Below the pieces are notes generated by a model. The model made no database searches. It saw only the letters and a list, made by a program, of their open reading frames with translations, and was not told where the DNA came from. Positions 35,509-54,049 of a stretch of 64,000 bases of DNA are shown here, in pieces. Made by a program: the position numbers and the translations under genes. This DNA is from Candidatus Woesearchaeota archaeon (lineage in GTDB: Archaea; Nanobdellota; Nanobdellia; Woesearchaeales; DSVV01). Numbering within the stretch: the stretch's first letter is position 1; each line of letters starts with the position of its first letter. The stretch spans positions 123,954-187,953 of the forward strand of contig JACRKF010000033.1 in the NCBI GenBank assembly GCA_016219865.1, in the 5' to 3' direction.

Positions 35509-35514
35509 TTTTTT

Positions 35515-37959: not shown

Positions 37960-38077
37960 GATTATTGTATGTTTGGATAAGCTACTAAATCTCTTTAAAT
38001 CAGACGGACATAAATTTCGAGATTATCTTTATCGCTAACCGGAGCGTTAGCGAGATTTAGGTTTGGGTCTCCCAAAT

Positions 38078-38115
38078 AGTATTTTCTGAATGAACTAAGT
38101 GAATTCGAAAATACT
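38078..38115 (+). repeat. HP1 hairpin repeat, copy f
   Basis: AGTATTTTC-tgaatGAACTAAGTGAATtc-GAAAATACT. Confidence 0.5.
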
Positions 38116-38157
38116 AATCGCAATCCTTATTAATCAACTCTTTTTTCTACTTAATTC

Positions 38158-40254
38158 ATGAGAACAAAAATACTTAATTATGCATTTCTTTTAGCCATAG
38201 CTGTGCTTGTCCTCTTTCCATGGTGGCTTGTATTCAATTCAATAATTACTCAAACAATAATCATCACTCTTTTATTCATTGCATTAATCACAAGCAGACG
38301 ATTGATTGAGAAACATCTGCAAAAATCACAGCAAAATGAAATACAAGATATATCAAAAGATTCGCAGCAAAAATTTCAAATTGCTCTATCAATGGAGAAC
38401 TTTGCAAAATTCTCCGAGGATAAACTAAATCTTTATTTATTTGTCAGACAACGCTGGAAATTTCTAACAATACTTTTTATAGTGCTTTTTATTCTGCATG
38501 CATATGCGTTAACATTTTCAGTATTGCCAATTGATGATGAACATTTTCATGCAGCTAAAGGATTATTCTTCCTAATTCCGATAAAATTAATATTAGATAA
38601 GACAAATATTTTAAGCTATTATTCAATGATTATTTTCTTTCTTTTATTAGTAAAGATAGCGTTGATTTACGCTTTTTACAAGTTTATAACAAAGCGAAAT
38701 ATTGAACCAAATAACTACTTAGAAATGTTATATAAATCAACACCATTGCTGATTATTTTCTTTATATTTATTACTTGTTATCATCTATTGGCTTATTTTA
38801 CAATTCACAAATTCTTCCCAACATTCGCTCAGCAGCAATTCGCCTGGCTTATTCGGTATGGTCCAGTCGGTGCAATATTTAATCTTATTCTCTCATTAAT
38901 TGGGTTTCAAGAATTATTCTTTATTCGTTTGCTGCAATTATTTTTTTCATTTTCTTCTGCAATTGTCTTATATCATATTGCTCAATTTTACATTAGCAAG
39001 AAATCAGCTGCATTTGCAGCAATACTCTTTCTTGTTCTTCCATCTGTATTTTATTTTGGTAGCCATGCATTCATGGAATCTGGAGTTGTTTTTTTTACAC
39101 TGCTGAGTGTTTATTTTTTCTTATTATGGCATCAACAAAGAAACACGCAGAAAAGTTCAGATTATCTGCTTTATGCATTTTTAACATTATTAATCGGTTT
39201 TTTTTACAAAGATGCAATATTATTTATTTTCATAATCTTCGTATTATTCTTGCTGTTTGAGATCAATAAAGATACTATCAAACAATTAACTGTAAAAGCA
39301 AATATGAATAAATTAAAAGATATCTTAAAACTATATTTGAAAGAGTATGCTTCATTTATATTACTCTCTTTTTTCTTTCTTTTCTTCACAGTATTTTGGT
39401 TAACAATTAGAAACAAATACATCACGCAATCATATTCAGCTGGCTATCATTTCATCTTACAAAATATTCTTTCAATATCAAAGCTTAGTATGTATGCAGA
39501 ATTGTCTCCATTAATGTTAACATATCCTATTGCAATAATTGCAGTATTTGGATTTATCTTTCTATTGTTAAAAAAGAAAACTCCGCAAGAAAGGTTGTTA
39601 ATTATATGGATTATTTTATTGTATCTGATATATATGTTATATAATTGGAGTGTTGCAGTTCCAAGGTTTTACATTCATTTTTTACCAGCATTACTGCTGA
39701 TATTCTTCATTTTTACAGAATGGTTATATTCATTTTTCATGTTCAAGAAAAATACTGCAAAACATATTTTCTATATTATACTAATTATTCTAACAGCAGC
39801 AACAACTTTGTATCAAACATATCATGAGATAGAAAACAGATATTGGGATTATGATAATTTGTACAAGTTTATTGGAAACAACGTCAATAAAGATCAAAAG
39901 ATTTTATTCCTCACACATGATGTATATTATTATTTTTTTAAATACAACATCAAAAATCCCATTATCACAGAGAATCAATTTCGAGCTTCTGGAAGAATAC
40001 AAGATTTTGAACAATTATATTCTTATATTATAGCAAACAATGTTAGCTACATTATCTTTCCAAATACAGGAGATCTATACACTAGTGTCAGAATGTACTC
40101 TCCAGATCCTTCAAAAGATAAATTACTAGATGAAGATAGGGCAATTATTCTTCAGTTAAATCAAAAACTGGCAGAAATAGACAAAAAAGATAATCTGCAG
40201 ATATTCATTTCAGGGAGCAATATCTTGTATCTAATAAAGGTAGAAAAGAAATAA
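38158..40254 (+). CDS. GT-C fold membrane glycosyltransferase (PMT/ArnT-like, GT39/GT83 family)
   Basis: Polytopic (>10 TM) protein with a DDEHFHAAKG loop motif like the DE(V)HFGK motif of PMT/ArnT enzymes, and a C-terminal soluble domain. Confidence 0.6.
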   Translation: MRTKILNYAFLLAIAVLVLFPWWLVFNSIITQTIIITLLFIALITSRRLIEKHLQKSQQNEIQDISKDSQQKFQIALSMENFAKFSEDKLNLYLFVRQRWKFLTILFIVLFILHAYALTFSVLPIDDEHFHAAKGLFFLIPIKLILDKTNILSYYSMIIFFLLLVKIALIYAFYKFITKRNIEPNNYLEMLYKSTPLLIIFFIFITCYHLLAYFTIHKFFPTFAQQQFAWLIRYGPVGAIFNLILSLIGFQELFFIRLLQLFFSFSSAIVLYHIAQFYISKKSAAFAAILFLVLPSVFYFGSHAFMESGVVFFTLLSVYFFLLWHQQRNTQKSSDYLLYAFLTLLIGFFYKDAILFIFIIFVLFLLFEINKDTIKQLTVKANMNKLKDILKLYLKEYASFILLSFFFLFFTVFWLTIRNKYITQSYSAGYHFILQNILSISKLSMYAELSPLMLTYPIAIIAVFGFIFLLLKKKTPQERLLIIWIILLYLIYMLYNWSVAVPRFYIHFLPALLLIFFIFTEWLYSFFMFKKNTAKHIFYIILIILTAATTLYQTYHEIENRYWDYDNLYKFIGNNVNKDQKILFLTHDVYYYFFKYNIKNPIITENQFRASGRIQDFEQLYSYIIANNVSYIIFPNTGDLYTSVRMYSPDPSKDKLLDEDRAIILQLNQKLAEIDKKDNLQIFISGSNILYLIKVEKK

Positions 40255-40325
40255 AGATCCAAATCGCAGAGCTACGGAGCATTAGACCAATTTTTCTGAG
40301 TAAATCATTTGTTATTTTTGTTGTT

Positions 40326-40363
40326 AGTATTTGCATTGTGAACGAAGTGAACAAGCAAATACT
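40326..40363 (+). repeat. HP1 hairpin repeat, copy g
   Basis: AGTATTTGC-attgtGAACGAAGTGAACaa-GCAAATACT, followed by TTAAAATTTATAAAT. Confidence 0.5.
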
Positions 40364-40399
40364 TAAAATTTATAAATTACTTTCTTTTTCTTTTGCACT

Positions 40400-41599
40400 A
40401 TGGAAGTAAATATTGAACCAAAAAGAAAAATAGAACTCGGCACATTACAGCTTTCACAGAAAGCAAAGCAATTAGTAAACGAAGTTCTTGATTCAAACAG
40501 ATTATCCTATGGTAGGTTCAGCAGGGAATTTGAACAGAAATTTTCAAAGATTCATCAATGCAAATATGGTATCCTTAGTAATTCTGGAACATCTGCATTG
40601 CATGTTGCATTAGCTGCATTAAAAGAGATTCATAATTGGAATGATGACGATGAAGTATTAGTGCCTTCAATAACATTTGTAGCTACATCAAATATTGTAA
40701 TTCATAATAGAATGACTCCTGTTTTTGTTGATATTGAAAAAGAATATTATGGCATAGATCCAGCATTGATAGAGCAGAAAATCACCAAGAGAACACGTGC
40801 AATTATTGTTGTGCATTTATTTGGAATGCCTTGTGCAATGGATGCTATCCATGCAATTGCAAAAGAACACAATCTAAAGATTATTGAAGATTCATGCGAA
40901 ACAATGTTTGCAAGATACAAAGATAAATCTGTGGGAAATCTCAGTGATATTGCTTGTTTTTCAACATATATTGCGCATTTATTAACGACAGGTGTTGGTG
41001 GTATTAACACTACGAATAATTTAGAATATGCAATCAAATTGCGTTCATTGGTTAATCATGGCAGAGATTCAATCTATTTTTCAATTGATGATGATGATAA
41101 CAAATCTGCTGATGAATTAAAAGAAATCATTGCAAAAAGATTCTCATTTGTTTCAGTTGGCCACAGCTTTCGTGTAACTGAAATGGAAGCAGCATTAGGA
41201 GTTGCGCAGCTTGATGCTTGGAATGATATGATTGCAAAGCGAAGATATAATGGAAAATATTTAATGCAAAAACTTTCTCATCTTTCTAGATTCATGCAAT
41301 TGCCAAAGCTTCGAGAAGGCGCTGAACATTCATTTATGATGTTTCCATTAGTTCTCCATAATGAACAAAAACAAGAATTTGTTAATTATCTGGAAAATCA
41401 TGGAATAGAAACAAGAGATTTAATGCCGTTAATAAATCAGCCAATTTATCAGAAACTCTTTAATATCAAATACGCAGATTATCCAATTGCAGACTGGATT
41501 AATAAGAATGGTTTCTACATTCCTTGTCATCAGGATTTAACGCAAGAAGATTTAGATTATATTGTGGCTGTTTTTGATAACTATTTCAATAATGTTTGA
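40400..41599 (+). CDS. DegT/DnrJ/EryC1/StrS-family PLP-dependent sugar aminotransferase
   Basis: ..NSGTSALHVALAAL.., overall aminotransferase fold; 399 aa. Confidence 0.75.
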   Translation: MEVNIEPKRKIELGTLQLSQKAKQLVNEVLDSNRLSYGRFSREFEQKFSKIHQCKYGILSNSGTSALHVALAALKEIHNWNDDDEVLVPSITFVATSNIVIHNRMTPVFVDIEKEYYGIDPALIEQKITKRTRAIIVVHLFGMPCAMDAIHAIAKEHNLKIIEDSCETMFARYKDKSVGNLSDIACFSTYIAHLLTTGVGGINTTNNLEYAIKLRSLVNHGRDSIYFSIDDDDNKSADELKEIIAKRFSFVSVGHSFRVTEMEAALGVAQLDAWNDMIAKRRYNGKYLMQKLSHLSRFMQLPKLREGAEHSFMMFPLVLHNEQKQEFVNYLENHGIETRDLMPLINQPIYQKLFNIKYADYPIADWINKNGFYIPCHQDLTQEDLDYIVAVFDNYFNNV

Positions 41600-41711
41600 T
41601 CGTATTAACTAAGCTTAAAAAAATGACGAACGAACCTCGTCAGCCCTTACGTGAGCTGGCGCCAAAACTTGGTGCGATTTCGTTTTACTCAATCGCACTA
41701 ACTGAATATAT

Positions 41712-41736
41712 AAAAAGCGAACGAAGTGAGCTTTTT
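41712..41736 (+). repeat. HP1 hairpin repeat, copy h
   Basis: AAAAAGC-GAACGAAGTGA-GCTTTTT. Confidence 0.5.
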
Positions 41737-41751
41737 ATTTGGAGATTTTTT

Positions 41752-42528
41752 ATGGAAACAAAACTAATATTCAACAATTCTCGTGGCAGCAAATTAGTTG
41801 GTATTCTTAGTAAAAAAAGTAATAAAGATATTGTTATTCTTTGTCATGGATTTACAAGCGATAAGAACAGCGCAAAAAATGTTGAGATTTCAAGAAAGTT
41901 AACTGATGTTTCAACGTTTCGTTTTGATTTTTTTGCTCATGGTGAAAGTGACGGCAATATGGAGAATATTACTGTCTCAGAAGGTGTTGATGGTATCCTC
42001 GCTGCAATAAACTATCTAAGAAAATTAAAGTATAAAAATATAGGTTTGCTTGGTTCAAGTTATGGTGGTTTATGCAGTATTATGGCTGCTGCAAAAGCAG
42101 CAAACGCAGATGATCTGCAATATCTCATTCTTGTTGCGCCTGTTTCAGATTATGAAGATGCAAAAAGAAAATCAGGTGGAGAACAATACATTGTTGATTG
42201 GCAGAAAAAAGGTTATGTTTATTATCCAAAGAAAGATGGAAAAAAGATAAGATTAAACATCTCTTTTTACAACGATTTCAAAAACAATATTGCGTACACA
42301 ATCGCAGATAAAATCAAGATTCCAACATTGCTCGTTCATGGTACAGAGGACAGATCAGTTCCTTTCCAGCAATCATCTAAATTATTTAAATTATTGCAGT
42401 GTGATAAGCAATTAGTAAAAGTAACTGGCGGAGATCACCGTTTCACAGATCCGCAAGATTTTGAGCAAGTAATAAACGTAATTGTTGATTTCATAAACAA
42501 TCAAGCGCACGGGATTTCTGAGAAATAA
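41752..42528 (+). CDS. alpha/beta-hydrolase (esterase/peptidase-like)
   Basis: ILCHGFTSDKNS, nucleophile elbow GSSYGG, and C-terminal HGTEDRSVP ... DH. The start at 41752 (METKLIF, preceded by ggag) is preferred over the track start 41596, which runs through upstream hairpins. Confidence 0.6.
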   Translation: METKLIFNNSRGSKLVGILSKKSNKDIVILCHGFTSDKNSAKNVEISRKLTDVSTFRFDFFAHGESDGNMENITVSEGVDGILAAINYLRKLKYKNIGLLGSSYGGLCSIMAAAKAANADDLQYLILVAPVSDYEDAKRKSGGEQYIVDWQKKGYVYYPKKDGKKIRLNISFYNDFKNNIAYTIADKIKIPTLLVHGTEDRSVPFQQSSKLFKLLQCDKQLVKVTGGDHRFTDPQDFEQVINVIVDFINNQAHGISEK

Positions 42529-42580
42529 AAATCTGCAAACATCCATAAACCTTTTATAATCCCTCTTTTTCTATAATGAT

Positions 42581-43609
42581 ATGCAATCTCAACAACAATC
42601 TCAGCCATTCATCTCAATAATTATTCCTGCATATAATGCGGAGAAATACATTGCATTAGTTTTAGAAGCAATTTCTAACCAAGATTACCCAAAAGAAAAG
42701 CTGGAAGTTATTGTTGTAGATGACAATTCAACAGATAAAACTGTAGAAATCGCAAAGAGCTATGAAAAAAGATTCCACAATTTTAAGCTACTCATCAAAG
42801 AAGGAATTAAAGGCGCAGCGAAATCAACAAACATGGGTATTAAAGAAGCAAAAGGTGAAATAGTTTGCAGTATTGATTCTGATGCAATTTTACAAAACAA
42901 AAATTGGTTGCAAGAGATAGTCTCTCATTTTGAAGATAAAACAGTTGCAGCAGTTGCAGGCTATATTGCAACAGGCAACACATATAATATCTGGGCAAGA
43001 TTAATGGGAGCTGAATTAGAGGACAGATATGATTCAATTTTAACTGAAAATGTTGATCATGTTTCAACTTGCAATACTGCATATAGAAAATCTTTTATTG
43101 AGAAAGTAAATCTATTCGATGAAAACTTATATTATGGTTATGATGTTGATTTATCCTACAAACTAAAAAATGCTGGCTTTACAATAAAGTTAGTAAAAAC
43201 AGTTGGCTGCAATCATTATTGGAAAGAAACTCTTCTTGGCTACCTTAAACAGCAGTTTAATGTAGCTTATGGTCGATTGTATCTCATCAACAGATACCCG
43301 CAGAAAGCATCAGGAGATAAAGTTGCAGGAATGTTCCAGTTTGTGCAAGTGCCTATGACTTTTCTGATAGGCTTCTTTTTAATCTTCAGTCTTTTCTCAT
43401 TTTCTTCAGTATACATCGCAGTATTATTTCTTATTTTACTGCTAATCATGCAGCTTCCGCAGCTATGGAGAATAATAAAAAAGAAAAAAGATGCTTCTTA
43501 TCTTCTGCTGCCATTCCTAAATATTGCAAGGAACATGACGTGGTGCATCGCGCTTCTATCTTATTACTTTGACAAAATGAGAGGAAAAACAAAGATTAAA
43601 ATTCTTTAA
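42581..43609 (+). CDS. family 2 glycosyltransferase with C-terminal TM helices
   Basis: ISIIIPAYNAEKYI, VIVVDDNSTDKT, DSDA. Confidence 0.75.
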   Translation: MQSQQQSQPFISIIIPAYNAEKYIALVLEAISNQDYPKEKLEVIVVDDNSTDKTVEIAKSYEKRFHNFKLLIKEGIKGAAKSTNMGIKEAKGEIVCSIDSDAILQNKNWLQEIVSHFEDKTVAAVAGYIATGNTYNIWARLMGAELEDRYDSILTENVDHVSTCNTAYRKSFIEKVNLFDENLYYGYDVDLSYKLKNAGFTIKLVKTVGCNHYWKETLLGYLKQQFNVAYGRLYLINRYPQKASGDKVAGMFQFVQVPMTFLIGFFLIFSLFSFSSVYIAVLFLILLLIMQLPQLWRIIKKKKDASYLLLPFLNIARNMTWCIALLSYYFDKMRGKTKIKIL

Positions 43610-43730
43610 CTATAAACTATAGCAATCATATTTTTATATATCTGAACAATCTAAGAAAATAGGCTATCGATTATTATTGATATTGTTTCATTAGATTTAT
43701 AAATAAATCTAGAGTCTTGCACAAAGAAGG

Positions 43731-45173
43731 ATGGTGGTTCCTATGAAGAAAGTTGTTTTTACTGTTGCTCCAAAGGTTAATGGAAGAAGACCTGAAAGGT
43801 CATTTGGTTGTTCATATACATTATATGATATGCCTGATTTAGGTATTTTATACACTGCAGCAGTTTTACGAAACGCTGGTCATCATGTTGAAATATTAGA
43901 TGAACCAGATGTTGATTGGGATGTTTATGTGGAGAAATTAGTAGCTTTAGGCGCAGATTATTATGTGCATCATACTCCTATTCTCGCAACAAAGATTGAT
44001 ATTAAATTAACAAATCAATTGCTTGAGAAATTACCAAATACAAAAATTGTTTACTTTGGTCCTCATCCAACATATGTTCCTGATAAATTCTTAACTGACG
44101 AACGTATTGTTGTAGCGCGAGGAGAAGCTGAATTTGTTATCAAAGATATTGTTGATGGTAAACAATATTCAGAAATTAAAGGATTAAGTTATTTAATTAA
44201 TGGCAAGATGGTAGAAAACGAAACAGCTGATATTATTCCAGATATTAATAGCTTGCCATTGCCTGCAAGAGACTTAGATAAGAAAAGTTATGCAAATCCA
44301 AAAATAGGTGGACAGAAATATACAAATGTATTAACTTCAAGAGGCTGTTCTTATGGTTGTTATTACTGTGTTCCAAATGCAATTTCATGGGCAAGAGAAT
44401 TAGAATGGAAACGTTTTCATAAAGGAAAACCTCCAGTTACAAAACGTTCTCCTGAAAAAGTAATTGAAGAAATTAGAGAATTATCAAAACAAGGTTATAA
44501 AGAATTTTCAATCATTGATGATCAATTTATCTGGGAAAAAGACAGAACATTAGCGCTTCTAAAAGGTCTGAAAGAATTAAACATCAAATACGGCATTCTT
44601 GCGCGAGCAGATAGATTGACAGACGAAGAAGTTATAAAAGCATTAGCTGATTCTGGCTGTCAATATGTTGATATTGGTGTTGAATCATTTGATCAGAAAG
44701 TTCTGGATTATATTAGAAAAGGCATGAAAATAGAATGTGTTTATACAGCAATTGATTTATTAGTCAAACATGGTATTACGCCAAAAGTAAATATCATGTT
44801 TGGTACTGCTCCAGTTGAAACACGAGAATCTATTATTAATACAATCAAAGAAACAAAGGCATTGCCTATTGATTATTGTATGTTTTCAATCGCAACTCCA
44901 TTTCCTGGAACAGATTTCGAAAAACACGTTAAAGAGCTTGGTTGGATGACTGATAATGGTGAAGGAGATAATATTTATGAGAATCTTAACCCAGCAAAAC
45001 GTTCAATAATTAAGCCAGGACAATTGACTGACAAAGAGTTAGAATCACTTGCAAAACGCGCGAATCGAGAATTTTATCTAAGACCAACTATCTTGGTAAA
45101 GCAGATCCGAAAGACAAATTCGATCAAAGGATTAACGCAAGGTGTAAAGACTCTAGTTAATGTTATTAAATAA
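43731..45173 (+). CDS. B12-binding-domain radical SAM enzyme (class B-like)
   Basis: N-terminal cobalamin-binding-like Rossmann region; radical SAM CxxxCxxC (SRGCSYGCYYC). Confidence 0.7.
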   Translation: MVVPMKKVVFTVAPKVNGRRPERSFGCSYTLYDMPDLGILYTAAVLRNAGHHVEILDEPDVDWDVYVEKLVALGADYYVHHTPILATKIDIKLTNQLLEKLPNTKIVYFGPHPTYVPDKFLTDERIVVARGEAEFVIKDIVDGKQYSEIKGLSYLINGKMVENETADIIPDINSLPLPARDLDKKSYANPKIGGQKYTNVLTSRGCSYGCYYCVPNAISWARELEWKRFHKGKPPVTKRSPEKVIEEIRELSKQGYKEFSIIDDQFIWEKDRTLALLKGLKELNIKYGILARADRLTDEEVIKALADSGCQYVDIGVESFDQKVLDYIRKGMKIECVYTAIDLLVKHGITPKVNIMFGTAPVETRESIINTIKETKALPIDYCMFSIATPFPGTDFEKHVKELGWMTDNGEGDNIYENLNPAKRSIIKPGQLTDKELESLAKRANREFYLRPTILVKQIRKTNSIKGLTQGVKTLVNVIK

Positions 45174-45198
45174 TCTAAATTATCAATTAACAATAATC

Positions 45199-45236
45199 AA
45201 AACTAAAAACTAATTAACTTGTTTTTTAGTTTTTTG
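45199..45236 (+). terminator. hairpin plus T-tract after the B12-rSAM gene
   Basis: AAAACTAAAAAC-taattaactt-GTTTTTTAGTTTT, then ttt. Confidence 0.45.
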
Positions 45237-45246
45237 GAGTTTTTCC

Positions 45247-46311
45247 ATGAATAACCATCCTGCAATAGAAGCTGTACGAAGAATGTTTTACATGATTCCA
45301 ACTACTCCAAGCTATGTCCAATTTGAGATAACAAATGAATGTAATCTTGCATGTAAGATGTGTCCAAGGGAAGTGCTTGGTGTAAAATTCATTAATATGG
45401 ATTTTGAAATGTTCAAACGCCTCGTTGATAAACTTGAAGGAGTAACTATGGTTTCCTTAACAGGTTGGGGTGAACCATTAGTGCATCCAAATCTTATTGA
45501 GATGATTAAATATTGTAAATTTAAGGGAATAATCACAAAATTCACAACCAATGGTGTATTATTCACTCCAGCATTATTGCAAGGAATATTTGATGCAAAA
45601 CTTGATGAGATTACATTTTCAATTGATTCAATTGCAATTGATCCTAAAAATGAATGGGGTCATCTGAACAAAGTTGCATTAAAATATATTCAGCAGATTC
45701 TTACGCAGAGAAAAGATCATAATGGATTTCCAAAATTAACATTGCAAGTTATGCTGCAGAAAGGAAGAGCAAAAGATATTTTTGATGTTATAGAATGGGG
45801 ATCGCAAAAAGGAGCAGATAAAATAAACATTGGAAGATTAAATTTAAGTTTTGATCCTAACTTAGTGCGGCCTTCATTAGAAGAAGAACAACATATCTTA
45901 GACACTGCAGAAGAACTTGGTGAGAAACACAAAATACAGATTGATTGCATCCAAGGCGGCATAGGCGCTGGATTTACAAGAAAAGTTTACAAGGCAACAA
46001 AAAAGTATCTTCACAAAGGTGGAAAACATTGCTTAAAAACTTATGATTATTGTTATGTTAATGTGCATGGGAAAATAACGCCTTGTTGTTTGCTTCCAAA
46101 TTATGCAGTTGGTGATTTTAATACTGTGAGTTTAAAGGAAATCTGGAACAGCGAAAAATTCAATCATTTTCGAGCAAATGAAGAAAAGATCTGCGGGAGC
46201 TGCGATGTCATGCGGGTGAACATGTTAGATCAAAGTGGAAATCACGCAAATCATATATCATCTAAAGACTCACAACAAAAACAACCACAACTATTACAAA
46301 TAAAACTTTAA
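45247..46311 (+). CDS. radical SAM enzyme with a C-terminal SPASM/twitch Cys-rich domain
   Basis: FEITNECNLACKMCP (CxxxCxxC); C-terminal ..CCLLPN..CGSCDVM.. Confidence 0.75.
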   Translation: MNNHPAIEAVRRMFYMIPTTPSYVQFEITNECNLACKMCPREVLGVKFINMDFEMFKRLVDKLEGVTMVSLTGWGEPLVHPNLIEMIKYCKFKGIITKFTTNGVLFTPALLQGIFDAKLDEITFSIDSIAIDPKNEWGHLNKVALKYIQQILTQRKDHNGFPKLTLQVMLQKGRAKDIFDVIEWGSQKGADKINIGRLNLSFDPNLVRPSLEEEQHILDTAEELGEKHKIQIDCIQGGIGAGFTRKVYKATKKYLHKGGKHCLKTYDYCYVNVHGKITPCCLLPNYAVGDFNTVSLKEIWNSEKFNHFRANEEKICGSCDVMRVNMLDQSGNHANHISSKDSQQKQPQLLQIKL

Positions 46312-46328
46312 TCATTTATAATCAAAAC

Positions 46329-46365
46329 TTATAATTCTGCTGAACGCAGTTCAGCAGAATTATAA
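46329..46365. repeat. perfect ~17-bp inverted repeat between the rSAM gene and the Dpm1-like gene
   Basis: TTATAATTCTGCTGAAC-gca-GTTCAGCAGAATTATAA. Confidence 0.6.
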
Positions 46366-46401
46366 ACATTTTTAAATAAAAGTATAATCAACACAAATTG
46401 T

Positions 46402-47118
46402 ATGGTAATAAGCAAAAAAAACTGGAAAATATCAATAATCATCCCAACATTTAATGAAAGTAAAAATATAACAACATTAGTTACACAATTATTTGCAATT
46501 GCAAAAAAAGAGAGTTTAAATCTAGAATTAATCATTGTTGATGACAATTCTCCGGATAAAACAGGGGAGATTGCAGAGCAATTAGCTAAAAGATTTCCAA
46601 TCAAGTGCATTCATAGAGAAGGAAAACTAGGTTTAGGCACAGCAGTTGTTGCAGGATTCAAAGCTGCATCTGGCAATATTCTTGGAGTGATGGATGCTGA
46701 CTTAAGTCATCCTCCTGATATTTTTCCTGAGCTTGTTAAGCCAATAATCGAAAATAATTATGATTTAACAATAGGCAGCAGATATGTAAAAGGTGGCGGC
46801 GTAGAAGTTTGGCCATTTCATCGAAAGATAATCAGCCTTGGCGCAACTTATTTAGCATATCCATTAACAAAGATAAAAGATCCTGTTTCAGGATTGTTTT
46901 TCTTCAAGAAAGAAGTAATTGACAATATTGAGCTTGGCGCAAAAGGCTATAAAATTGGTCTGGAGATATTTGTAAAAGGAAATTATAAAAAATACAAAGA
47001 AGTTCCATACATGTTTAGAAATAGGATTTACGGAGAAAGCAAAATAGGCTCAGGAGAATTCGTAGACTACATTAAGAATGTACTAAGATTAGCAAAGTAT
47101 AAGCTGCTCAAGAAATAA
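46402..47118 (+). CDS. GT2 polyprenol-phosphate glycosyltransferase (dolichol-phosphate mannose synthase-like)
   Basis: ISIIIPTFNESKNI, LIIVDDNSPDKTGEIA, MDADLSHPP (the Dpm1 signature). Confidence 0.75.
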   Translation: MVISKKNWKISIIIPTFNESKNITTLVTQLFAIAKKESLNLELIIVDDNSPDKTGEIAEQLAKRFPIKCIHREGKLGLGTAVVAGFKAASGNILGVMDADLSHPPDIFPELVKPIIENNYDLTIGSRYVKGGGVEVWPFHRKIISLGATYLAYPLTKIKDPVSGLFFFKKEVIDNIELGAKGYKIGLEIFVKGNYKKYKEVPYMFRNRIYGESKIGSGEFVDYIKNVLRLAKYKLLKK

Positions 47119-47140
47119 AGAGAACTTTGCAAAATTCTCT
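47119..47140. repeat. PAL2 palindrome, copy 5 (abuts the stop codon of the Dpm1-like gene)
   Basis: AGAGAACTTTGCAAAATTCTCT. Confidence 0.55.
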
Positions 47141-47223
47141 AAAAAGATAAATAAAAATAAAGAAAAAATTAAACGAAGAATGAATAGCCGTATCGTACGC
47201 TTTGTCGTTACATAGGCTATTCA

Positions 47224-47250
47224 TAAATTCGAACGAAGTGAGAATTTATG
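47224..47250 (+). repeat. HP1 hairpin repeat, copy i (its 3' arm contains the ATG of the downstream rSAM gene)
   Basis: ATAAATTC-GAACGAAGTGA-GAATTTAT. Confidence 0.5.
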
Positions 47251-48264
47251 AATTTATTACAAATTGTAAAAAAACCATTTCAGTATGCAAATACTGCTAG
47301 AAAATTTACAGGATATAATCTGCTTAAACACAGAACTCCTGTTTCAGTAGGTTTTATTATTACTCATCGGTGTAATTTTCGTTGCACATATTGCGATTCT
47401 CCAAATCAGGTGGAAGATGAGATGACAACAGAGCAGATATTTGCTATGATTGATGAATTGGCAGATATGGGTTTAGAAAGACTTGGTATTACTGGCGGAG
47501 AACCAACATTGCGCATGGACATTGGAAAGATAATTGATCATGCAAAAAGCAAAGGCATGGTTGTAACAATGGTAACAAATGGTTCATTATTGAACGAAAA
47601 AAGATTGGGTGAGATAAAAAATCTTAATCTGCTGCTTATGAGTTTTGATGGTCCTGCTGAGATTCACAACACAACCAGAGTCAGGGCATCTTATGATAGA
47701 TTAATGGAAACAATCAAGCTTGTGCGAAGCAAAGGCATTCCTCTCTGGACAGAAACAGTGTTAACAAAGTTTAATCTAGATCAGATTGATTTCATCTTAG
47801 ATAAAGCAGATGAGCTTGATTTCAAATGTTTATTTCAGCCAGTATTTAATTATCCATTAGCAAGAGATAAAGAAACAATCAGCAGCATAACTCCGTCAAC
47901 TGAAGAATTCAAAAAAACAATGGACCATATAATCGCTGCAAAAAAAGCAGGAAGAAAAGTTGTTGGTTCAGTTTCCTATTTTGAATTTTTAAAAGATAAA
48001 TATCCAAGGAGTGAGAAATATGGCTGCAAAGCAGGTGAGATTTCAGCAGCAATCACTCCATCAGGACAAGTTGTCCCTTGTCATTTTGTCATTAAAGATG
48101 GAAGAAAATGGCCAAATGGCAATCAAATTGGTTTTCGTGAAGCATTTGCGCAAATTGGCGACAAAGGATGCAAGGGTTGCTTTTGCAATGCATACTGGGA
48201 ACTTAATTTCATTTCATCATTCAAGCCAGAAGCAGTTATAAATGCGCTGCAAAATAGGATATGA
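47248..48264 (+). CDS. radical SAM enzyme with a SPASM-like C-terminal domain
   Basis: IITHRCNFRCTYCDSP; C-terminal YGCKAGE..VPCHF..GCKGCFCNAYWE. Confidence 0.75.
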   Translation: MNLLQIVKKPFQYANTARKFTGYNLLKHRTPVSVGFIITHRCNFRCTYCDSPNQVEDEMTTEQIFAMIDELADMGLERLGITGGEPTLRMDIGKIIDHAKSKGMVVTMVTNGSLLNEKRLGEIKNLNLLLMSFDGPAEIHNTTRVRASYDRLMETIKLVRSKGIPLWTETVLTKFNLDQIDFILDKADELDFKCLFQPVFNYPLARDKETISSITPSTEEFKKTMDHIIAAKKAGRKVVGSVSYFEFLKDKYPRSEKYGCKAGEISAAITPSGQVVPCHFVIKDGRKWPNGNQIGFREAFAQIGDKGCKGCFCNAYWELNFISSFKPEAVINALQNRI

Positions 48265-48329
48265 TATTGAAAGGATATGTAATTTCGTATTTAATCATAA
48301 AAAAACCGTCGAAGGAGGATTTTTTTATA

Positions 48330-49403
48330 ATGAAACAAATTTCACTTGTAAAACAGATGATAAAAAGTAAACTTACGAGTACGCCCTACAAATTAAACTT
48401 TGTAACAACAGCAGCATGCAACAGCAAATGTGTAACTTGCAACATTTGGAAAGTTTATTTAGATAATCCTGCTGTAATAAAAAATGAATTAACATTAGAT
48501 GAATTAAAAAAAATATTTGATGCTCTTCCTGATACAATTAGTTGGCTGAGTTTAACAGGTGGTGAACCTTTTCTTAGAACAGATTTGGCTGACATCATGA
48601 TTGAAGCGCAGAAAAGAATTAAAAATCTTAAATTATTAAGCATGCCAAATAATGGATTAATTCCAGAAAGAGTAATTGATTGTTTAAAAAAAGTTCTTGC
48701 AGATAAAAAGCACGTTCCAATAATCATGACCTTTTCAATTGATGGTCCTGAAGAAATCCATGATGTTGTTCGCGGTGTAAAAGGCGGATACAGGAGAACA
48801 ATGGATGCATATACGCAAGTGAAAGAGCTTACAAAAGATGATCCTCATTTTCTTGTAGCAATAGAAACAACAATCTCCTCTAGAAATGTTAAATACTTAT
48901 ATGATTGGTTTGAAATTTTGTTTAAGCAAGACCATAAAGTTTCGGTTACAGTTGCTCATGAAGCTTATTTATACAAAAATACAAGTAATCAATTAGGGAT
49001 TACACCTCGAGATCATATTGCTGAGATTAAAAGGATTACAAAACTATTTAATAAACATTTAAGCGTTATGAATCCAAAACAATTGATGGAGCGATTATAT
49101 ATGAAGAAAATCCCAGTATTTCTCGAGAAGAATGATAATAAGCAGATAGTGCCTTGTCAATCATTATCAGCTTCAATTGCGATGAATTCATTCGGAGAAT
49201 TAACACCTTGTTTAATGTGGGATAAGAAACTTGCAAACATAAGAGAATTCGATTACGATTTAAAAAAAGTGCTTGCATTGCAGTCAACAAAAGATGTTCG
49301 TCAGATGATCAAACTGGAGAAATGTCCAAATTGCTGGACCCCGTGTGAAGCATATCAAAGTATTTTCTGGGCTTTAGCGAATGGAAAATATCTGAAAGCA
49401 TAA
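48330..49403 (+). CDS. radical SAM enzyme with a SPASM/twitch-like C-terminus
   Basis: TTAACNSKCVTCNIW; C-terminal CPNCWTPCEAY. The start at 48330 follows an aaggagga Shine-Dalgarno-like motif and is preferred over the track start 48261. Confidence 0.7.
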   Translation: MKQISLVKQMIKSKLTSTPYKLNFVTTAACNSKCVTCNIWKVYLDNPAVIKNELTLDELKKIFDALPDTISWLSLTGGEPFLRTDLADIMIEAQKRIKNLKLLSMPNNGLIPERVIDCLKKVLADKKHVPIIMTFSIDGPEEIHDVVRGVKGGYRRTMDAYTQVKELTKDDPHFLVAIETTISSRNVKYLYDWFEILFKQDHKVSVTVAHEAYLYKNTSNQLGITPRDHIAEIKRITKLFNKHLSVMNPKQLMERLYMKKIPVFLEKNDNKQIVPCQSLSASIAMNSFGELTPCLMWDKKLANIREFDYDLKKVLALQSTKDVRQMIKLEKCPNCWTPCEAYQSIFWALANGKYLKA

Positions 49404-49478
49404 TTAATTTTGCAAAACTCTTGTTTTGCAAAATTATTCCACAAGCAATATAAAGCCTTCTTTTTACACATACAAATA

Positions 49479-51128
49479 ATGGTAAAATTAGTTAATCTCA
49501 TCAAAGAACATAAAGAATTAGTGTTAATTCTTTTGATTTTTGCTATCTTAAAATTAACTTTTCTTTCTCACCCATTAGTCAGCTTAGAATACATGTACAC
49601 AACACCAGCAGAAAGAATCATACAACACAATTTCTCATTTAACTGGAACTATCTGATGTACTATTTTGAAAATATGTCAAATCCATTATTAACTTCATTT
49701 ATAATAATTCCTGGAATACTTTTGTTTGGTTTCTCAGAATTTATTGCAAGATTTCCAATTCTTATTGCTGCAATACTTTTCTTATTAACAATTTATTATT
49801 TCGCAAATAATTTTTATAATAAAAAGATAGCAATAATCGCAACTCTTTTATTTGCGTTGAATCCATTAATCTGGCTTTATAGTGGGCAGATTACAACTGA
49901 TATTATTTTCACATTTTTTATATCTATTGCTTTGCTTTTCTGCATTAATGGACTGCTTAATAAAAAATATTTAAACATTTTCATCTCAGCTATATTTATT
50001 GCTCTTGCAATGCTGACAAAATATATTGCATCATTATATTATATATTGATTCTGATTTTCATACTTGTCACAGTGCAAGAATCAACCAAAAAATATGTTT
50101 TTTCATTGCAGAATCTGAAAAGAATTATTTTACAAGGCTTACCCTATTTATTATTTCTGGCAATCTTAGTTATTCCTTATATCTTATTGATGTTTCTCCA
50201 ATTTGGATTTGTAATGCACCCAAACTTAGTTGATTTAGCATGGAGAGATGGTGGAATTTTACAGCAATTGCCTCTCAGAATTTTTGGTTATTTTGTCTGG
50301 GCAGCTATTTTTATTGGGTTGCTTTATCCTGTAGTTTTATATGATCTTTACAGCAGATTAAAGAGATACATTTCCATGAAGCAAATAATATTTTTCACAT
50401 CTTTGCTAGTTGTTCTTAATCTAATTTTATTTTTCTCAATTGATCTTGCAAAATTACATTATCTTGGAGAACTTCATTTTGGAGGTTTGACAGCATTGTT
50501 CTCACTGTTTATTTTAAAATTAATACTCGCTGTTCTTCTTTTCCTTGGAGAATTGTTAGTAATAACAATTCTCCTTTGGTTTATACAAGGCAATCTGTTA
50601 GAAAAATATCTTTCATTCTGGATACTTTATTCATTTGTTGTATTAGCAACAGCTCGTCCAACACAGCGATATTTGATGCTTATTCTCCCTCCACTCGTAA
50701 TCTATTTAGCTCTAATGATTAATCAACTGCTCCAAAATATAAAAATAAGAAAATATGCCTTCTTGATAGTAGCATTGCATATTTTTTTATTTTTATTGGC
50801 AAACCTCTTTTTGTCAGTCTACGAATACAAACTAGGTTATGCTGCAAAAGATATTGCTGATTACATCAAACAAAATAATTTAGAAACACAGATTAATTTT
50901 GACATTATTGGTCACAATTATTATCTTTTGATTGACACTCAAACTTATCCATTAGACAATCGAAATCTTGTGCTTTTTGCTGATACTCGTCCATATCTTG
51001 CAACTGACAAAAGCAATCTTGGTAAAGGAAAGTTTGCTGGAGAGTTTGATATAGTCAAAGAATCAAAAGTAGAAATTCTTGGTATAAAGATTAAAGATTT
51101 TGTAGTTGCAAAGAGGCTAAACAAATAG
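49479..51128 (+). CDS. GT-C fold polytopic membrane glycosyltransferase (ArnT/PMT-like)
   Basis: About 12 TM helices with the hydrophobic layout typical of GT-C enzymes. An internal start (MVKLVNL..) is preferred over the track start at 49410. Confidence 0.5.
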   Translation: MVKLVNLIKEHKELVLILLIFAILKLTFLSHPLVSLEYMYTTPAERIIQHNFSFNWNYLMYYFENMSNPLLTSFIIIPGILLFGFSEFIARFPILIAAILFLLTIYYFANNFYNKKIAIIATLLFALNPLIWLYSGQITTDIIFTFFISIALLFCINGLLNKKYLNIFISAIFIALAMLTKYIASLYYILILIFILVTVQESTKKYVFSLQNLKRIILQGLPYLLFLAILVIPYILLMFLQFGFVMHPNLVDLAWRDGGILQQLPLRIFGYFVWAAIFIGLLYPVVLYDLYSRLKRYISMKQIIFFTSLLVVLNLILFFSIDLAKLHYLGELHFGGLTALFSLFILKLILAVLLFLGELLVITILLWFIQGNLLEKYLSFWILYSFVVLATARPTQRYLMLILPPLVIYLALMINQLLQNIKIRKYAFLIVALHIFLFLLANLFLSVYEYKLGYAAKDIADYIKQNNLETQINFDIIGHNYYLLIDTQTYPLDNRNLVLFADTRPYLATDKSNLGKGKFAGEFDIVKESKVEILGIKIKDFVVAKRLNK

Positions 51129-51271: not shown

Positions 51272-52825
51272 ATGGGAAAAAAAGAGAATTCAGGATGTAT
51301 GTCTAAATATTATTTAGCATTAGTTGCAATTGTCGCAATTGTTGCGATTGTGAGTTTGTTTAAGTTAGCAGGAGGAAGTTCTGGTGGTTCATCATCAGGA
51401 TTATTCAGTGCAAATAAAGATTTGACTGGAAATGCTGTCTATGTTGCGCAAGATGTTTACTCAATTAAACCAAAGACTGATATTAAACTTTATGAAAAAG
51501 ACACCAAATCATGTACTGGTTTAACATCAATCGATGTTGATTCAGTATTAAATAAGTCAGAAGTAAAGGTTGTACGGTTAGTTGAAACAATAAAATTAGG
51601 TAAAAAACAAAAGAAAGAGGTAGCTGTAAGCCTCGCATCAAAGTGTTATAATTCTAAAGAACCAAATACATTACTCCATTATTATTGTGATCAAAATCTT
51701 GCTCATATTGTAAGATTAGATTGTAAAAATGGTTGTAAAGATGGCGCATGTATTGCTCCTCCAGTTCCTGTTGCAGTTCAACAACCGATTTCTTGTGAAG
51801 AAGATAATGAATGTCCTTCTGGTTCAGTATGTGATACAGCATCAACATGGACATGCGTACCAAGTACTTCTGCGCCAAGTGCTCCATCACCAAAAGAAGA
51901 AACAAAAGAAGTTCAAAAAGTGCCAATTGAAACTGCCGAAACTGCCCAGCAAAAAGAGCAAAAAATCTCAATAACTCCGCAATGTGATATTATATATGAT
52001 TATAATGGAGACGGTTATGTTGGAAAGAAAGATAGTGACTTTTTATCTCAGTTGTTATTAAAAACAGTTACATGTCCTACTGGAAAAACGTGTGATATTA
52101 ATGGAGATAAGAAAGTAAGCAGTGTTGATCTTCAATTATTTGTAACTAAAAACCAAGCTTGTATAGATGCATCAGCTGCTAATCCAGCTTTAGAAAAATC
52201 AGTTTGTGGCAATAATTTTATTGAAACAGGAGAATTATGTGATGGGATTCAATTAATCTCCAAAACTTGTCCAGCAGGAAAAACAGGAAGTATTGTATGT
52301 AAAAGTGATTGCAGTGATGTAGATACAAGTGGATGTAAATCTTTAGCAGAAACTTGTAAAGAAACAGCTAAGACTATAGAATCTGGTATTCTTATGAATG
52401 GTGCTTACACACCAACTACTTATCAGAAAGGCAAGTCTTATTGTGGTTCAGCGCTAGTGCTAGTAATTGCTGAATTATCCTATAAAGCTGCAAGTGTTAC
52501 ACCATTAAAATGTGAAAATGGAATCATTGTTAATCAAACAACAATTTGTCCAAATGGTTGTGATACAGAATCAGGAAAGTGTAAATTAGACTGTAATACA
52601 TTATCTTTAAATGATACAACCTGGGTGAATTACACCAATCCATACAGCGATAGTCCGCCTTATTATGCAACACCAACATATAGGTGTAATAGTGAATGGA
52701 GTAGTATTAAAGGAAATTATTGGACATTAGTTAACACATCTTGTAATTATTTAAACAATTCAGCAGGAGTTGAAACAAAAGAATGTTTTACTAAGTGTGA
52801 TAAAATAAATGGTATGTGCCAATAA
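51272..52825 (+). CDS. membrane-anchored, Cys-rich extracellular protein carrying a dockerin-type double Ca-binding repeat
   Basis: N-terminal TM helix (LALVAIVAIVAIVSLF); dockerin repeats DYNGDGYVGKKDSDFLSQLLLK and DINGDKKVSSVDLQLFVTK; many Cys. Confidence 0.6.
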   Translation: MGKKENSGCMSKYYLALVAIVAIVAIVSLFKLAGGSSGGSSSGLFSANKDLTGNAVYVAQDVYSIKPKTDIKLYEKDTKSCTGLTSIDVDSVLNKSEVKVVRLVETIKLGKKQKKEVAVSLASKCYNSKEPNTLLHYYCDQNLAHIVRLDCKNGCKDGACIAPPVPVAVQQPISCEEDNECPSGSVCDTASTWTCVPSTSAPSAPSPKEETKEVQKVPIETAETAQQKEQKISITPQCDIIYDYNGDGYVGKKDSDFLSQLLLKTVTCPTGKTCDINGDKKVSSVDLQLFVTKNQACIDASAANPALEKSVCGNNFIETGELCDGIQLISKTCPAGKTGSIVCKSDCSDVDTSGCKSLAETCKETAKTIESGILMNGAYTPTTYQKGKSYCGSALVLVIAELSYKAASVTPLKCENGIIVNQTTICPNGCDTESGKCKLDCNTLSLNDTTWVNYTNPYSDSPPYYATPTYRCNSEWSSIKGNYWTLVNTSCNYLNNSAGVETKECFTKCDKINGMCQ

Positions 52826-52927: not shown

Positions 52928-54049
52928 ATGACTCATGAACATTCATCATTATTCGGATTGCCTAATGAGGAGAATTTTGCGTTGCAAAATTCTCTCAAAC
53001 AAAAATTATTGGTAAAAGATGACTTATTTACAGATATTCTTGGACAGCAGAAAGTAAAACATAATCTAAAGTCTGCATTATTAATGTCTAGGCACGTTAT
53101 TATTCTTGGCCCTCCAGGAATTGGCAAGACAACATTGGCAAAAAATATTGCAAAATTATTGCCAAGCATCACAGTTAATGATTGTGGTTATCATTGCACT
53201 CCGGAGAATCCAATCTGTCCATCATGCTTGCAAGCGCATCAACAGAGACACAAGATAAAGACAAAAGAGATTTCTGGAACAGAACGTTTCATCAGAGTGC
53301 AAGGTTCTCCTGATTTAACTGCTGAAGATCTGCTTGGAGACATTGATCCTGTCAAAGCTATTAAATTTGGTGGATTAAGCATTGAAGCATTTACACCAGG
53401 AAAAATATTTAAGGCAAACAATGGTATTTTATTCTTTGACGAATTAAATCGAGCGCCAGAAAAACTGCAGAATGCATTATTGCAAGTTTTAGAAGAAGGA
53501 AAAATAACAATTGGCAGTTACGATGTTGATTTTCAGGTTAATTTTATTTTTATTGCAACGATGAATCCAAAAGATGCAACAACAGAAAGATTAGCGGATG
53601 TATTGCTTGACCGTTTTGATATGTTGTATATGGGATATCCTGAAACTATTGCAATTGAGATGAAAATCTTAGAATTGAAAGGAAAAAAGCTTCCAGTAAC
53701 TTTTCCAGAGCATTTGATACATTACATTGTTGCATTTATCCATGAATTGAGAGATAACAAAAATCTTGAGCAAGTGCCAAGTGTGCGAGCAACTTTAGGG
53801 TTATATGAACGAAGCCAAAGCAATGCTCTTCTAAAAAATCATAAAGAAGTTGCAATGGAAGACATCAAAGAAGTGATGGAATCAGTTCTTCCTCACAGAA
53901 TAAAATTAAAGCCAAGTGTAAAATTATTATCAGATCCCGCGCAATTTGTGAAAGATGAATTGGAAAGATTTTCTGATTCCAAACAATATCGAGAATCAAA
54001 AAGAACTATGGAAGAAGATCTTGAAACTACGCGGGATGGTTCTACCTGA
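52928..54049 (+). CDS. MoxR-family AAA+ ATPase with a Cys4 insertion after Walker A
   Basis: Walker A ILGPPGIGKTT, Walker B ILFFDELNRAPEKLQNALLQVLEE, and an inserted DCGYHCTPENPICPSC. The true start is probably downstream of 52928, because a PAL2 palindrome occupies 52967-52996. Confidence 0.75.
   Translation: MTHEHSSLFGLPNEENFALQNSLKQKLLVKDDLFTDILGQQKVKHNLKSALLMSRHVIILGPPGIGKTTLAKNIAKLLPSITVNDCGYHCTPENPICPSCLQAHQQRHKIKTKEISGTERFIRVQGSPDLTAEDLLGDIDPVKAIKFGGLSIEAFTPGKIFKANNGILFFDELNRAPEKLQNALLQVLEEGKITIGSYDVDFQVNFIFIATMNPKDATTERLADVLLDRFDMLYMGYPETIAIEMKILELKGKKLPVTFPEHLIHYIVAFIHELRDNKNLEQVPSVRATLGLYERSQSNALLKNHKEVAMEDIKEVMESVLPHRIKLKPSVKLLSDPAQFVKDELERFSDSKQYRESKRTMEEDLETTRDGST
52948..52996. 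repeat. PAL2 palindrome copy 7, with a CGGATTGCCTAAT box
   Basis: tCGGATTGCCTAATgaGGAGAATTTTGC-gtt-GCAAAATTCTCtc. Confidence 0.5.

Follow-up and report, generated by a model that had tools for sequence, protein, structure and literature searches.

Analysis of a 64-kb stretch of a metagenome-assembled genome (MAG) of Candidatus Woesearchaeota, a small-genome DPANN archaeon (the whole 64 kb is hereafter the window), points to a locus at 32.8-51.1 kb that probably synthesizes and decorates a cell-surface glycan. We consider it reasonably likely that this is a lipid-linked surface glycosylation system of the general type of the Agl and GacI/GacJ/GacL pathways, in which sugars would be tailored by the oxygen-independent radical chemistry of four radical S-adenosylmethionine enzymes (rSAMs); our confidence in any specific reaction of these enzymes is much lower than in radical tailoring of a sugar or glycan as such. 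The glycosylation frame is already known, whereas the proposed four-rSAM sugar tailoring is new, as is a phylum-spanning cassette that combines a membrane-anchored glycosyltransferase (GT) of the GT2 type, an rSAM with a B12-binding domain, in some cases an rSAM with a SPASM domain, and a GacI-like GT2. Literature searches pairing radical SAM enzymes with DPANN, Patescibacteria, GT-C, polyprenyl, DUF2304 and polysaccharide returned no description of this cassette.

Domain calls were made with Pfam and NCBIfam models and their curated cut-offs. They bear out the order of ten genes at 38158-51128 that had been given in an initial annotation of the sequence: all ten open reading frames (ORFs) are on the + strand at the coordinates noted there, are tightly spaced or overlapping, and carry domains matching the earlier description. 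Central to what follows are six consecutive genes. The first of these codes for GT2a, a membrane-anchored, synthase-like GT2 (42581-43609; Pfam Glycos_transf_2, Glyco_tranf_2_3 and Glyco_trans_2_3). It is followed by the B12 rSAM, a class B enzyme of an uncharacterized family (43731-45173; Radical_SAM 87 bits, B12-binding 43 bits against a cut-off of 32.1), by SPASM1, an rSAM with a partial SPASM domain (45247-46311; Pfam SPASM 48.8 bits, cut-off 21.5), and by GT2b, a putative soluble-type polyprenyl-phosphate GT resembling Dpm1, GacI, AglJ and PpgS (46402-47118; Glycos_transf_2 128 bits). The last two are twitch-like rSAMs, namely rSAM3, which belongs to a rare family (47248-48264; Radical_SAM 100 bits, DUF3463 below cut-off), and its distant paralog rSAM4 (48261-49403; 25% identity, E = 2e-18), whose start shares 4 nt with the end of the rSAM3 gene.

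The decisive evidence comes from conserved gene-neighborhoods, in which all four rSAM families are independently linked to glycan genes. A scan guided by a profile and covering one genome per species recovered 80 loci that carry a B12-rSAM relative, every one of them in a MAG, from Woese-, Aenigm- and Pacearchaeota, uncultured Methanosarcinales, Delta-/Thermodesulfobacteriota, Nitrospirota, Actinomycetes, Patescibacteria, Omnitrophota, Planctomycetota and other lineages; 53 of these loci are at the level of orthologs. At 38 of the 53 a gene of the GT2a type stands immediately 5' of the B12 rSAM on the same strand, with a median gap of -1 nt, and loci with this pair span more than ten phyla. 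A short GT2 of the Dpm1/GacI type is found at 29 of the 53, a median of 77 nt 3' of the B12 rSAM. The same ortholog loci further contain DUF2304 (GacJ-like) genes (at least 11 loci), a second B12 rSAM (19), GT4 genes (17) and an ortholog of SPASM1 abutting the B12 rSAM gene (7).

The SPASM1 family has about 80 relatives, which often share contigs with relatives of the B12 rSAM. SPASM1 adjoins the B12 ortholog at archaeal loci L013, L027, L045, L061 and L066 (in our numbering), and at L066 a gene for AglB/STT3 stands beside the cassette; elsewhere (L096) a GT2a-like gene, with no B12 rSAM present, directly precedes a SPASM1 relative, next to a GT2-DUF2304 pair. About 22 close homologs of rSAM3 were found, and the three contexts examined hold B12 rSAMs, DegT, PMT_2 and GT2 proteins and methyltransferases. 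The rSAM4 family is larger, with 367 cluster representatives at E <= 1e-30; of 43 metagenome loci of at least 6 kb, 29 have a GT no more than 5 kb from the family member, and other recurrent neighbors are epimerases/dehydratases of the short-chain dehydrogenase/reductase (SDR) superfamily, carbamoyltransferases, DegT proteins, methyltransferases and B12 rSAMs. Two relatives of the present locus retain all four rSAMs: L012, whose B12 rSAM is 91% identical and whose shared region shows 81-84% nucleotide identity, and L001, which is 72-81% identical. The single glycosylation island of the initial annotation accordingly resolves into a widely conserved cassette, GT2a - B12 rSAM - [SPASM] - GacI-like GT2, joined by lineage-restricted genes, namely the GT-Cs, the two twitch rSAMs, a hydrolase and an enzyme of the DegT fold.

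Two loci encountered in this survey deserve separate mention. One of the three rSAM3 contexts (L092, a 21-kb contig of JGI 3300009373) is an extremely rSAM-dense glycan island. Of its at least eight rSAM genes, four code for a B12 domain, two for an HMPTM-type Zn ribbon and one for a SPASM domain, another being the rSAM3 homolog; it also has two DegT genes, PMT_2, GT2, SDR, asparagine synthase and peptidase U32. The other is a loosely related locus on a 27-kb plasmid of the cultivable pathogen Lawsonia intracellularis (L011), where GT2 and DUF2304 genes are found with two rSAMs, one of them B12-like (25% identity), along with six class I methyltransferases and genes of a heptose pathway, and which might offer an experimental entry point.

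The sequence affinities of the four rSAMs assign them to no characterized family: none of the four reaches an NCBIfam cut-off, and all scores are far below. The best match of the B12 rSAM is HpnJ (full length, 197 bits against a cut-off of 577.6), ahead of BchE (126 bits) and methylases (at most 80 bits). For SPASM1 it is the maturase of a tungsten-cofactor oxidoreductase (130 bits; cut-off 380), and for both rSAM3 and rSAM4 it is PTO1314 (117 and 65 bits respectively; cut-off 306). The match of SPASM1, together with a SPASM1 homolog lying among unrelated genes (L095), could be taken to mean that the juxtaposition is fortuitous and that the rSAMs are maturases of cofactors, RNA or metalloclusters unrelated to the GT genes. 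However, these scores are all well below cut-off, genes for the corresponding oxidoreductase or cofactor pathways are absent from the window, and each of the four rSAM families is independently and repeatedly linked to GTs across phyla; this explanation is already disfavored, and we attach only the slightest probability to it. The initial annotation had named as fatal to its proposal a placement of all four rSAMs in housekeeping families with neighborhoods unrelated to GTs. Since no rSAM falls in a characterized family and all four families are linked to GTs, the situation found is the opposite one.

The B12 rSAM unites the two features by which class B enzymes are recognized, an N-terminal B12-binding domain and a CX3CX2C core, the latter at residues 206-213 with C206, C210 and C213 invariant in 36 homologs. 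Its 578 homologs all come from uncultured organisms. A search of PDB sequences identified AprD4 as its closest solved relative; AprD4 has a similar domain but is not known to use cobalamin, so that the predicted B12-binding domain need not imply cobalamin binding or methyl transfer.

The resemblance of the B12 rSAM to HpnJ, which extends to 27% identity with a true HpnJ (E = 8e-35), raises an alternative in which the chemistry concerns lipid head groups, as in the HpnI-HpnJ-HpnK pathway of the bacteriohopanetetrol cyclitol ether or in calditol synthase (Cds). Under this alternative GT2a would glycosylate a membrane lipid alcohol (archaeol, diacylglycerol or polyprenol) and the B12 rSAM would contract the ring of the hexosamine to yield an ether-linked cyclitol, the product being an acid- and glycosidase-resistant head group instead of a glycan on protein or polysaccharide. 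Several observations are consistent with it: the order of a membrane GT2 followed immediately, and often with overlap, by an rSAM with a B12 domain mirrors that of hpnI-hpnJ; GT2a belongs to a membrane 'synthase-like' group of GT2s that includes lipid glycosyltransferases; hexosamine supply genes, for UDP-GlcNAc, lie nearby; the hydrolase of the locus could replace HpnK; and a gene for LPG_synthase_TM accompanies both hpnIJK and a related locus (L093). The mechanism has been proposed for HpnJ and Cds (PMC13459092).

On a profile of the B12-rSAM family, however, a true HpnJ (160 bits) is outscored by an rSAM of a Clostridium cluster for a peptide that is made on ribosomes and modified post-translationally (RiPP; 184 bits) and by paralogs from glycan loci (210-263 bits), so that HpnJ does not stand out as a close relative. 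A BLASTP comparison of GT2a with HpnI finds no significant similarity, GT2a matches the HpnI model only at E = 2.8e-6 (26 bits), and no HpnK/YdjC-like gene is present at the locus or among the Pfam matches of the window. Membership in the HpnI/J/K system was rejected on these grounds, with real Mycetohabitans plasmid sequences as the reference, and with the HpnJ cut-off widely missed; nor is there a hopanoid context in this archaeon. Moreover, the cassette occurs in bacteria and archaea of unrelated membrane lipids, usually in loci of a polysaccharide type that also encode GT4, Wzx and several GT-Cs. The best plasmid match of the B12 rSAM (Clostridium, 32% identity) belongs to a PqqD-linked RiPP cluster, which indicates that the clade has mixed substrates. 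We therefore treat HpnJ as a lead and not as a family assignment, regard the lipid head-group alternative as unlikely, and give an outcome of ring contraction to a cyclitol a similarly low standing, without favor over methylation or other chemistry.

The initial annotation had described the remaining three rSAMs as SPASM/twitch enzymes. SPASM1 is the only rSAM of the locus to pass the Pfam SPASM threshold, and its conserved cysteines (32, 36, 39, 262, 280, 281, 316 and 319) include five auxiliary ones as against seven in a full SPASM domain. The other two are below that threshold and twitch-like, with four to five auxiliary cysteines in a shorter tail of the form C-X17-C...C-X2-C-X(1/3)-C. The confident AlphaFold2 (AF2) models of rSAM3 and SPASM1 (pLDDT 90 and 88) match a generic SPASM/twitch fold, the nearest folds to rSAM3 being CteB, SuiB, PqqE, BlsE and viperin, and PDB sequence matches of the rSAMs are remote throughout (AprD4, PqqE, CteB, viperin, MoaA and BtrN). 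Since peptide maturases are interleaved in the fold matches of both models with enzymes acting on sugars or nucleotides (BlsE, viperin, DesII and BtrN), the fold assigns no substrate.

These affinities bear on another alternative, namely that the SPASM/twitch rSAMs are maturases that install a thioether, formylglycine or cross-link in a neighboring secreted protein or in an unrecognized precursor peptide. In its favor are the domain architecture, the identity of the best structural neighbors by E-value (CteB, SuiB, SkfB, PqqE and the anaerobic sulfatase-maturating enzyme, anSME) and the presence directly 3' of GT-C 2 of a gene for a secreted protein with 33 cysteines and a weak dockerin match (51272-52825). 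But the neighborhoods of these families are dominated by GTs and not by peptide genes, and the RiPP and anSME models of NCBIfam all score far below their cut-offs; anSME is absent from the top NCBIfam matches and is matched in the PDB only at E = 2.6e-6. As the initial annotation had stated, there is no sign of a precursor: the six-frame ORF list holds no conserved or Cys/Gly-rich small ORF in the gaps, and the intergenic DNA does not align with that of L012, at 81-84% identity, or of L001. No PqqD Pfam match was obtained on the proteins of the locus, and because the CX3CX2C motifs begin at residues 32, 42 and 53 there is no room for an N-terminal RiPP recognition element (RRE) of about 90 residues. 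Protease, ABC-exporter and sulfatase genes are likewise absent from the window. The cysteine-rich gene is an insertion relative to L012 and L001, both of which have all four rSAMs but lack this gene, and there the MoxR-VWA-phosphoesterase genes come right after the GT-C gene; the dockerin-like protein was accordingly rejected as an rSAM substrate, and the modification of neighboring secreted proteins that the initial annotation had entertained is not upheld. Altogether we deem peptide or protein maturation very improbable.

The gaps themselves hold repeats. The perfect 17-bp inverted repeat at 46329-46365, reported earlier, is real; it has T-rich flanks and a loop of 3 nt, and it occurs nowhere else in the window, against a chance expectation of 0. 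It is terminator-like on both strands and is a probable terminator or operator separating two transcription units. A role as a system-defining element was rejected on account of its uniqueness and its lack of conservation in the relatives. The gap hairpins noted earlier correspond to 42-nt palindromic repeats of a family that we term D2, at 38076-38117 (5' of GT-C 1) and 40324-40365 (3' of it). D2 has six copies in the window, each of 42 nt (7682, 11824, 12403, 38076, 40324 and 55974), and also occurs in L012; it is one of two families of palindromic intergenic repeats (REP/MITE-like hairpins), for which further sites lie at 20965, 26988 and 52968.

A non-radical partner in sugar tailoring might be the DegT-fold enzyme (40400-41599), predicted to depend on pyridoxal or pyridoxamine phosphate (PLP/PMP) and matching DegT of Pfam with 322 bits. 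The initial annotation had called it an aminotransferase. In its motif FSTYIAHLLTTGVGG, however, the Schiff-base lysine is replaced by a histidine (His193), which aligns with K186 of the Caulobacter perosamine synthase, the column marked by the K186A mutant entry 3DR4, as well as with the lysine of QdtB and of three other solved aminotransferases. The histidine is kept in a 78%-identical ortholog, whereas the DegT paralogs of other related loci carry lysine. This lysine-to-histidine replacement is a hallmark of the PMP-dependent 3-dehydratases ColD, E1/RfbH and SpnQ. RfbH is also the best NCBIfam match (241 bits against a cut-off of 423), and PDB matches include E1 (E = 2.5e-48) and ColD (E = 2.9e-36). 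The protein is thus a candidate sugar 3-dehydratase of the ColD/E1 (RfbH) type rather than an aminotransferase, although it differs from these enzymes in its sub-threshold RfbH score and in that no 4,6-dehydratase gene to furnish the 4-keto-6-deoxy substrate accompanies it in the window. An E1-type [2Fe-2S] cluster was rejected for it, the sequence having no C-x-C motif. The next gene codes for an alpha/beta serine hydrolase with a GSSYG nucleophile motif (Pfam Hydrolase_4, Peptidase_S9 and Abhydrolase_1), possibly a sugar de-O/N-acylase. Its listed ORF begins at 41596, but the first ~155 nt contain a repeat element (41673-41754) and the L001 ortholog has 253 residues, which suggests that the true start is Met53 at 41752 (gene 41752-42528).

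The GT complement of the locus is that expected for lipid-linked donors. GT2a orthologs have C-terminal hydrophobic segments in 19 of 19 cases and conserve the motifs DSD, TAYR and QQxxxAYGR; the NCBIfam matches of GT2a are to AglG- (55 bits), PglI- and MftF-like models, below their cut-offs. GT2b matches polyprenyl-phosphate sugar synthases only, all again short of the cut-off (PgfS 71, AglJ 63, ArnC 59 and PpgS 41 bits). The array is flanked by two polytopic proteins: GT-C 1 (38158-40254; PMT_2 32.4 bits, cut-off 26.1, and PMT 28.8 bits, cut-off 22.7), with a PMT-like 'DDEHFH' loop, a soluble C-terminal domain and an ortholog kept in L001, and GT-C 2 (49410-51128; PMT_2 55 bits, cut-off 26), with ~13 hydrophobic segments and orthologs in L001 and L012. 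The GT-C fold is confirmed in both by scores above the gathering threshold and at least 12 hydrophobic segments each; PDB sequence searches with both yielded nothing useful.

Pfam and NCBIfam searches with the upstream ORFs revealed that the functional locus begins further 5' than 38158, at the gene for GlmM (32851). Genes for UDP-GlcNAc production lie directly 5' on the same strand, coding for the phosphoglucosamine mutase GlmM (32851-34203; TIGR01455 608 bits, cut-off 448, with four PGM_PMM Pfam domains), an archaeal bifunctional sugar-1-phosphate nucleotidylyltransferase/acetyltransferase of the GlmU type (34216-35436; TIGR03992 464 bits, cut-off 292) and GlmS, the glutamine--fructose-6-phosphate transaminase (36217-37959; TIGR01135 555 bits, cut-off 418). 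Between the latter two lies the gene for a HAD hydrolase of the beta-phosphoglucomutase family (35494-36165; Pfam HAD_2, TIGR02009 131 bits, below the cut-off of 153). The GlmM protein passes the bacterial-type equivalog at 608 bits and falls below the cut-off of the archaeal GlmM model (354 against 439 bits), which suggests a bacterial-type or transferred gene in this archaeon.

A potential acceptor is encoded further 3': a giant secreted repeat protein of 2200 residues (56170-62772, + strand), rich in N, T and S, with an N-terminal hydrophobic segment, about nine internal repeats and 158 NxS/T sequons as against 61.8+-6.4 in shuffled sequences. It has no Pfam or NCBIfam match, and an ortholog is found near the locus in both L012 (85% identity) and L001 (52%). 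It is probably the major surface glycoprotein and a candidate acceptor of the glycan.

Among the known systems closest to the GT part are the three-component systems, exemplified by GacI/GacJ/GacL of Streptococcus pyogenes, PpgS/Rv3632/Rv3779 of Mycobacterium tuberculosis, ArnC/ArnT and the polyprenyl-phosphate-ribose systems (GT136). In the first of these, GacI (GT2) and GacJ (DUF2304) produce GlcNAc-P-undecaprenol and external transfer of the sugar is the work of the GT-C GacL; PpgS/Rv3632 forms the counterpart in mycobacteria, and the decoration with lipid-linked N-acetylhexosamine (HexNAc) is experimentally established (bioRxiv 10.1101/180810). Such systems can further include accessory enzymes by which the sugar is changed before it is transferred (PMC11127046). 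The woesearchaeal locus shares with them a Dpm1-type GT2b devoid of transmembrane segments and polytopic GT-Cs in one operon-like array, a UDP-HexNAc supply encoded next door, and tailoring enzymes placed between synthase and GT-C, for which epimerases are the precedent; in related loci the GT2b-type gene is followed by DUF2304 of the GacJ/Rv3632 family. Unlike them, it has no DUF2304, GtrA or MATE flippase in the window, its tailoring would be carried out by four rSAMs and a PMP-dehydratase-like protein instead of flavin/NAD enzymes, and it possesses a second, membrane-anchored GT2 tightly coupled to the B12 rSAM.

The Haloferax Agl pathway (AglJ, AglG, AglD, AglS and AglB) offers a second parallel. 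GT2b and GT2a match AglJ and AglG respectively; the role of the GT-Cs resembles that of AglS, an external transferase that depends on Dol-P-sugar; the sequon-rich surface protein adjoins the locus; and AglB stands beside the cassette in L066. In contrast, the scores are far below the equivalog cut-offs and AglB is not found in the window, and to our knowledge no Agl pathway includes radical SAM enzymes. The initial annotation had held that no known system could be assigned: for the rSAMs, which are in no characterized family, this stands, whereas the GT2/GT-C part does fit the scheme of GacI/J/L, PpgS/Rv3632/Rv3779 and AglD/AglS.

For the radical part the parallels come from soluble antibiotic pathways. 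The sequence and fold neighbors include BtrN, DesII, AprD4 and BlsE, which like the GenK-type enzymes apply a twitch/SPASM or B12-domain architecture to sugars, and the pairs BtrN/BtrS and DesII/DesI combine an rSAM with a DegT-fold PLP/PMP enzyme. As AprD4, BtrN, DesII, BlsE and AbmM are among the nearest solved or named relatives, and a DegT-fold enzyme, a hydrolase and several rSAMs together are typical of such clusters, the locus could instead specify a small molecule akin to an aminoglycoside, nucleoside or aminocyclitol. Yet identities are only 14-24% with no specific match, the two GT-Cs and the Dpm1-like GT2 imply lipid-linked donors and extracytoplasmic transfer, which those pathways do not share, and the conserved neighbors are GacI/J-like pairs, GT4, Wzx and AglB. 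The window contains no exporter, resistance gene or regulator of the antibiotic-cluster type, and the host is a DPANN archaeon with a small genome. A natural-product pathway consequently strikes us as quite unlikely.

Radical chemistry on a glycan or lipid-linked sugar, one of several options in the initial annotation, thus provides the best reading, all four families being GT-linked in related and unrelated genomes. The pathway might run as follows. UDP-GlcNAc, made by GlmS, GlmM and GlmU, would be the starting sugar; GT2b, going by its family resemblance, would load HexNAc onto dolichyl or polyprenyl phosphate, and GT2a would act at the membrane face to add or extend a sugar. Remodeling of the nucleotide- or lipid-linked sugar may fall to the B12 rSAM and its SPASM partner, tied to GT2a, as the neighborhoods and the precedents suggest; rSAM3 and rSAM4, placed between GT2b and GT-C 2, may likewise act on the sugar, with the ColD/E1-like DegT-fold enzyme taking a PMP-dependent share in the same tailoring. 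A ColD-type enzyme needs a keto-sugar, for which a twitch-type rSAM dehydrogenase or a gene in another part of the genome could, speculatively, be the source. Finally the two PMT_2 GT-Cs would transfer the lipid-linked sugar to an acceptor outside the cell, most plausibly the glycan or the polypeptide of the sequon-rich surface protein. The likely types of reaction are alcohol-to-ketone oxidation, deoxygenation, epimerization, C-methylation and rearrangement. As for precedents, BtrN oxidizes an alcohol to a ketone in partnership with the DegT-fold enzyme BtrS, DesII deaminates or oxidizes alongside DesI, AprD4 dehydrates a diol and BlsE decarboxylates, enzymes of the GenK type are class B C-methylases, and for HpnJ a ring contraction has been proposed. 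A narrower version, in which the cassette acts radically on a membrane-anchored sugar, polyprenyl-phosphate- or lipid-linked, by C-methylation or by an HpnJ/calditol-type ring contraction to an ether-linked cyclitol, is offered tentatively and is on balance doubtful.

Several observations weigh against a surface glycan tailored by radical chemistry. The fold searches fail to separate sugar-modifying from peptide-modifying rSAMs, and no family-level match of the rSAMs or the GT2s reaches its curated equivalog cut-off. The neighborhoods have their exceptions: L095 is an orphan SPASM1 homolog among non-glycan genes, and about a quarter to a third of the rSAM4-family loci lack glycan neighbors. 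The 64-kb window codes for no 4,6-dehydratase or SDR dehydratase that could feed a ColD-type enzyme and for no flippase (GtrA, DUF2304, Wzx or MATE), and AglB/STT3 has no match on its ORFs of at least 150 residues; each of these may lie elsewhere in the genome. The identity of the acceptor is a guess, and N-glycosylation would need AglB rather than the PMT_2 enzymes.

Uncultured anaerobes of more than ten phyla share the cassette, none of whose members has been studied. If the narrower version were true, DPANN archaea, bacteria of the candidate phyla radiation (CPR) and many anaerobic Nitrospirota, Desulfobacterota and Omnitrophota would display undescribed surface sugars or cyclitols, and radical tailoring of a lipid-linked donor would constitute an undescribed mode of glycan diversification. 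The surfaces of episymbiotic DPANN archaea and CPR bacteria mediate attachment to the host. If sugars are indeed what is tailored, radical SAM carbohydrate chemistry would extend from antibiotic pathways to primary cell-envelope biosynthesis and would give anaerobes a route to deoxy, branched and carbocyclic sugars that dispenses with oxygen- or NAD-dependent steps, possibly with new biocatalysts. With a core of three or four genes, heterologous reconstitution of the cassette appears realistic.

Beyond the glycan locus, a trio of genes for a MoxR AAA+ ATPase, a VWA protein and a metallophosphoesterase (52928-55896) lies immediately 3' of it and is syntenic in L001 and L012. At the other end of the window is a likely diversity-generating retroelement (1100-4272), in which an RVT_1 reverse transcriptase gene (3223-4272) is preceded by an intergenic repeat. 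The repeats are at 2605-2661 and 2929-2985, the intergenic copy being 86% identical to the 3' end of the ORF at 1100-2719, and the mismatches are mostly adenines in the intergenic (template) copy, the exceptions being one T-to-G change and one 3-nt indel. Two genes on the - strand contain inteins (4137-6410 and 12445-15057): one is a deoxyhypusine synthase with an intein and an HNH endonuclease, and the other has an intein with a LAGLIDADG endonuclease.

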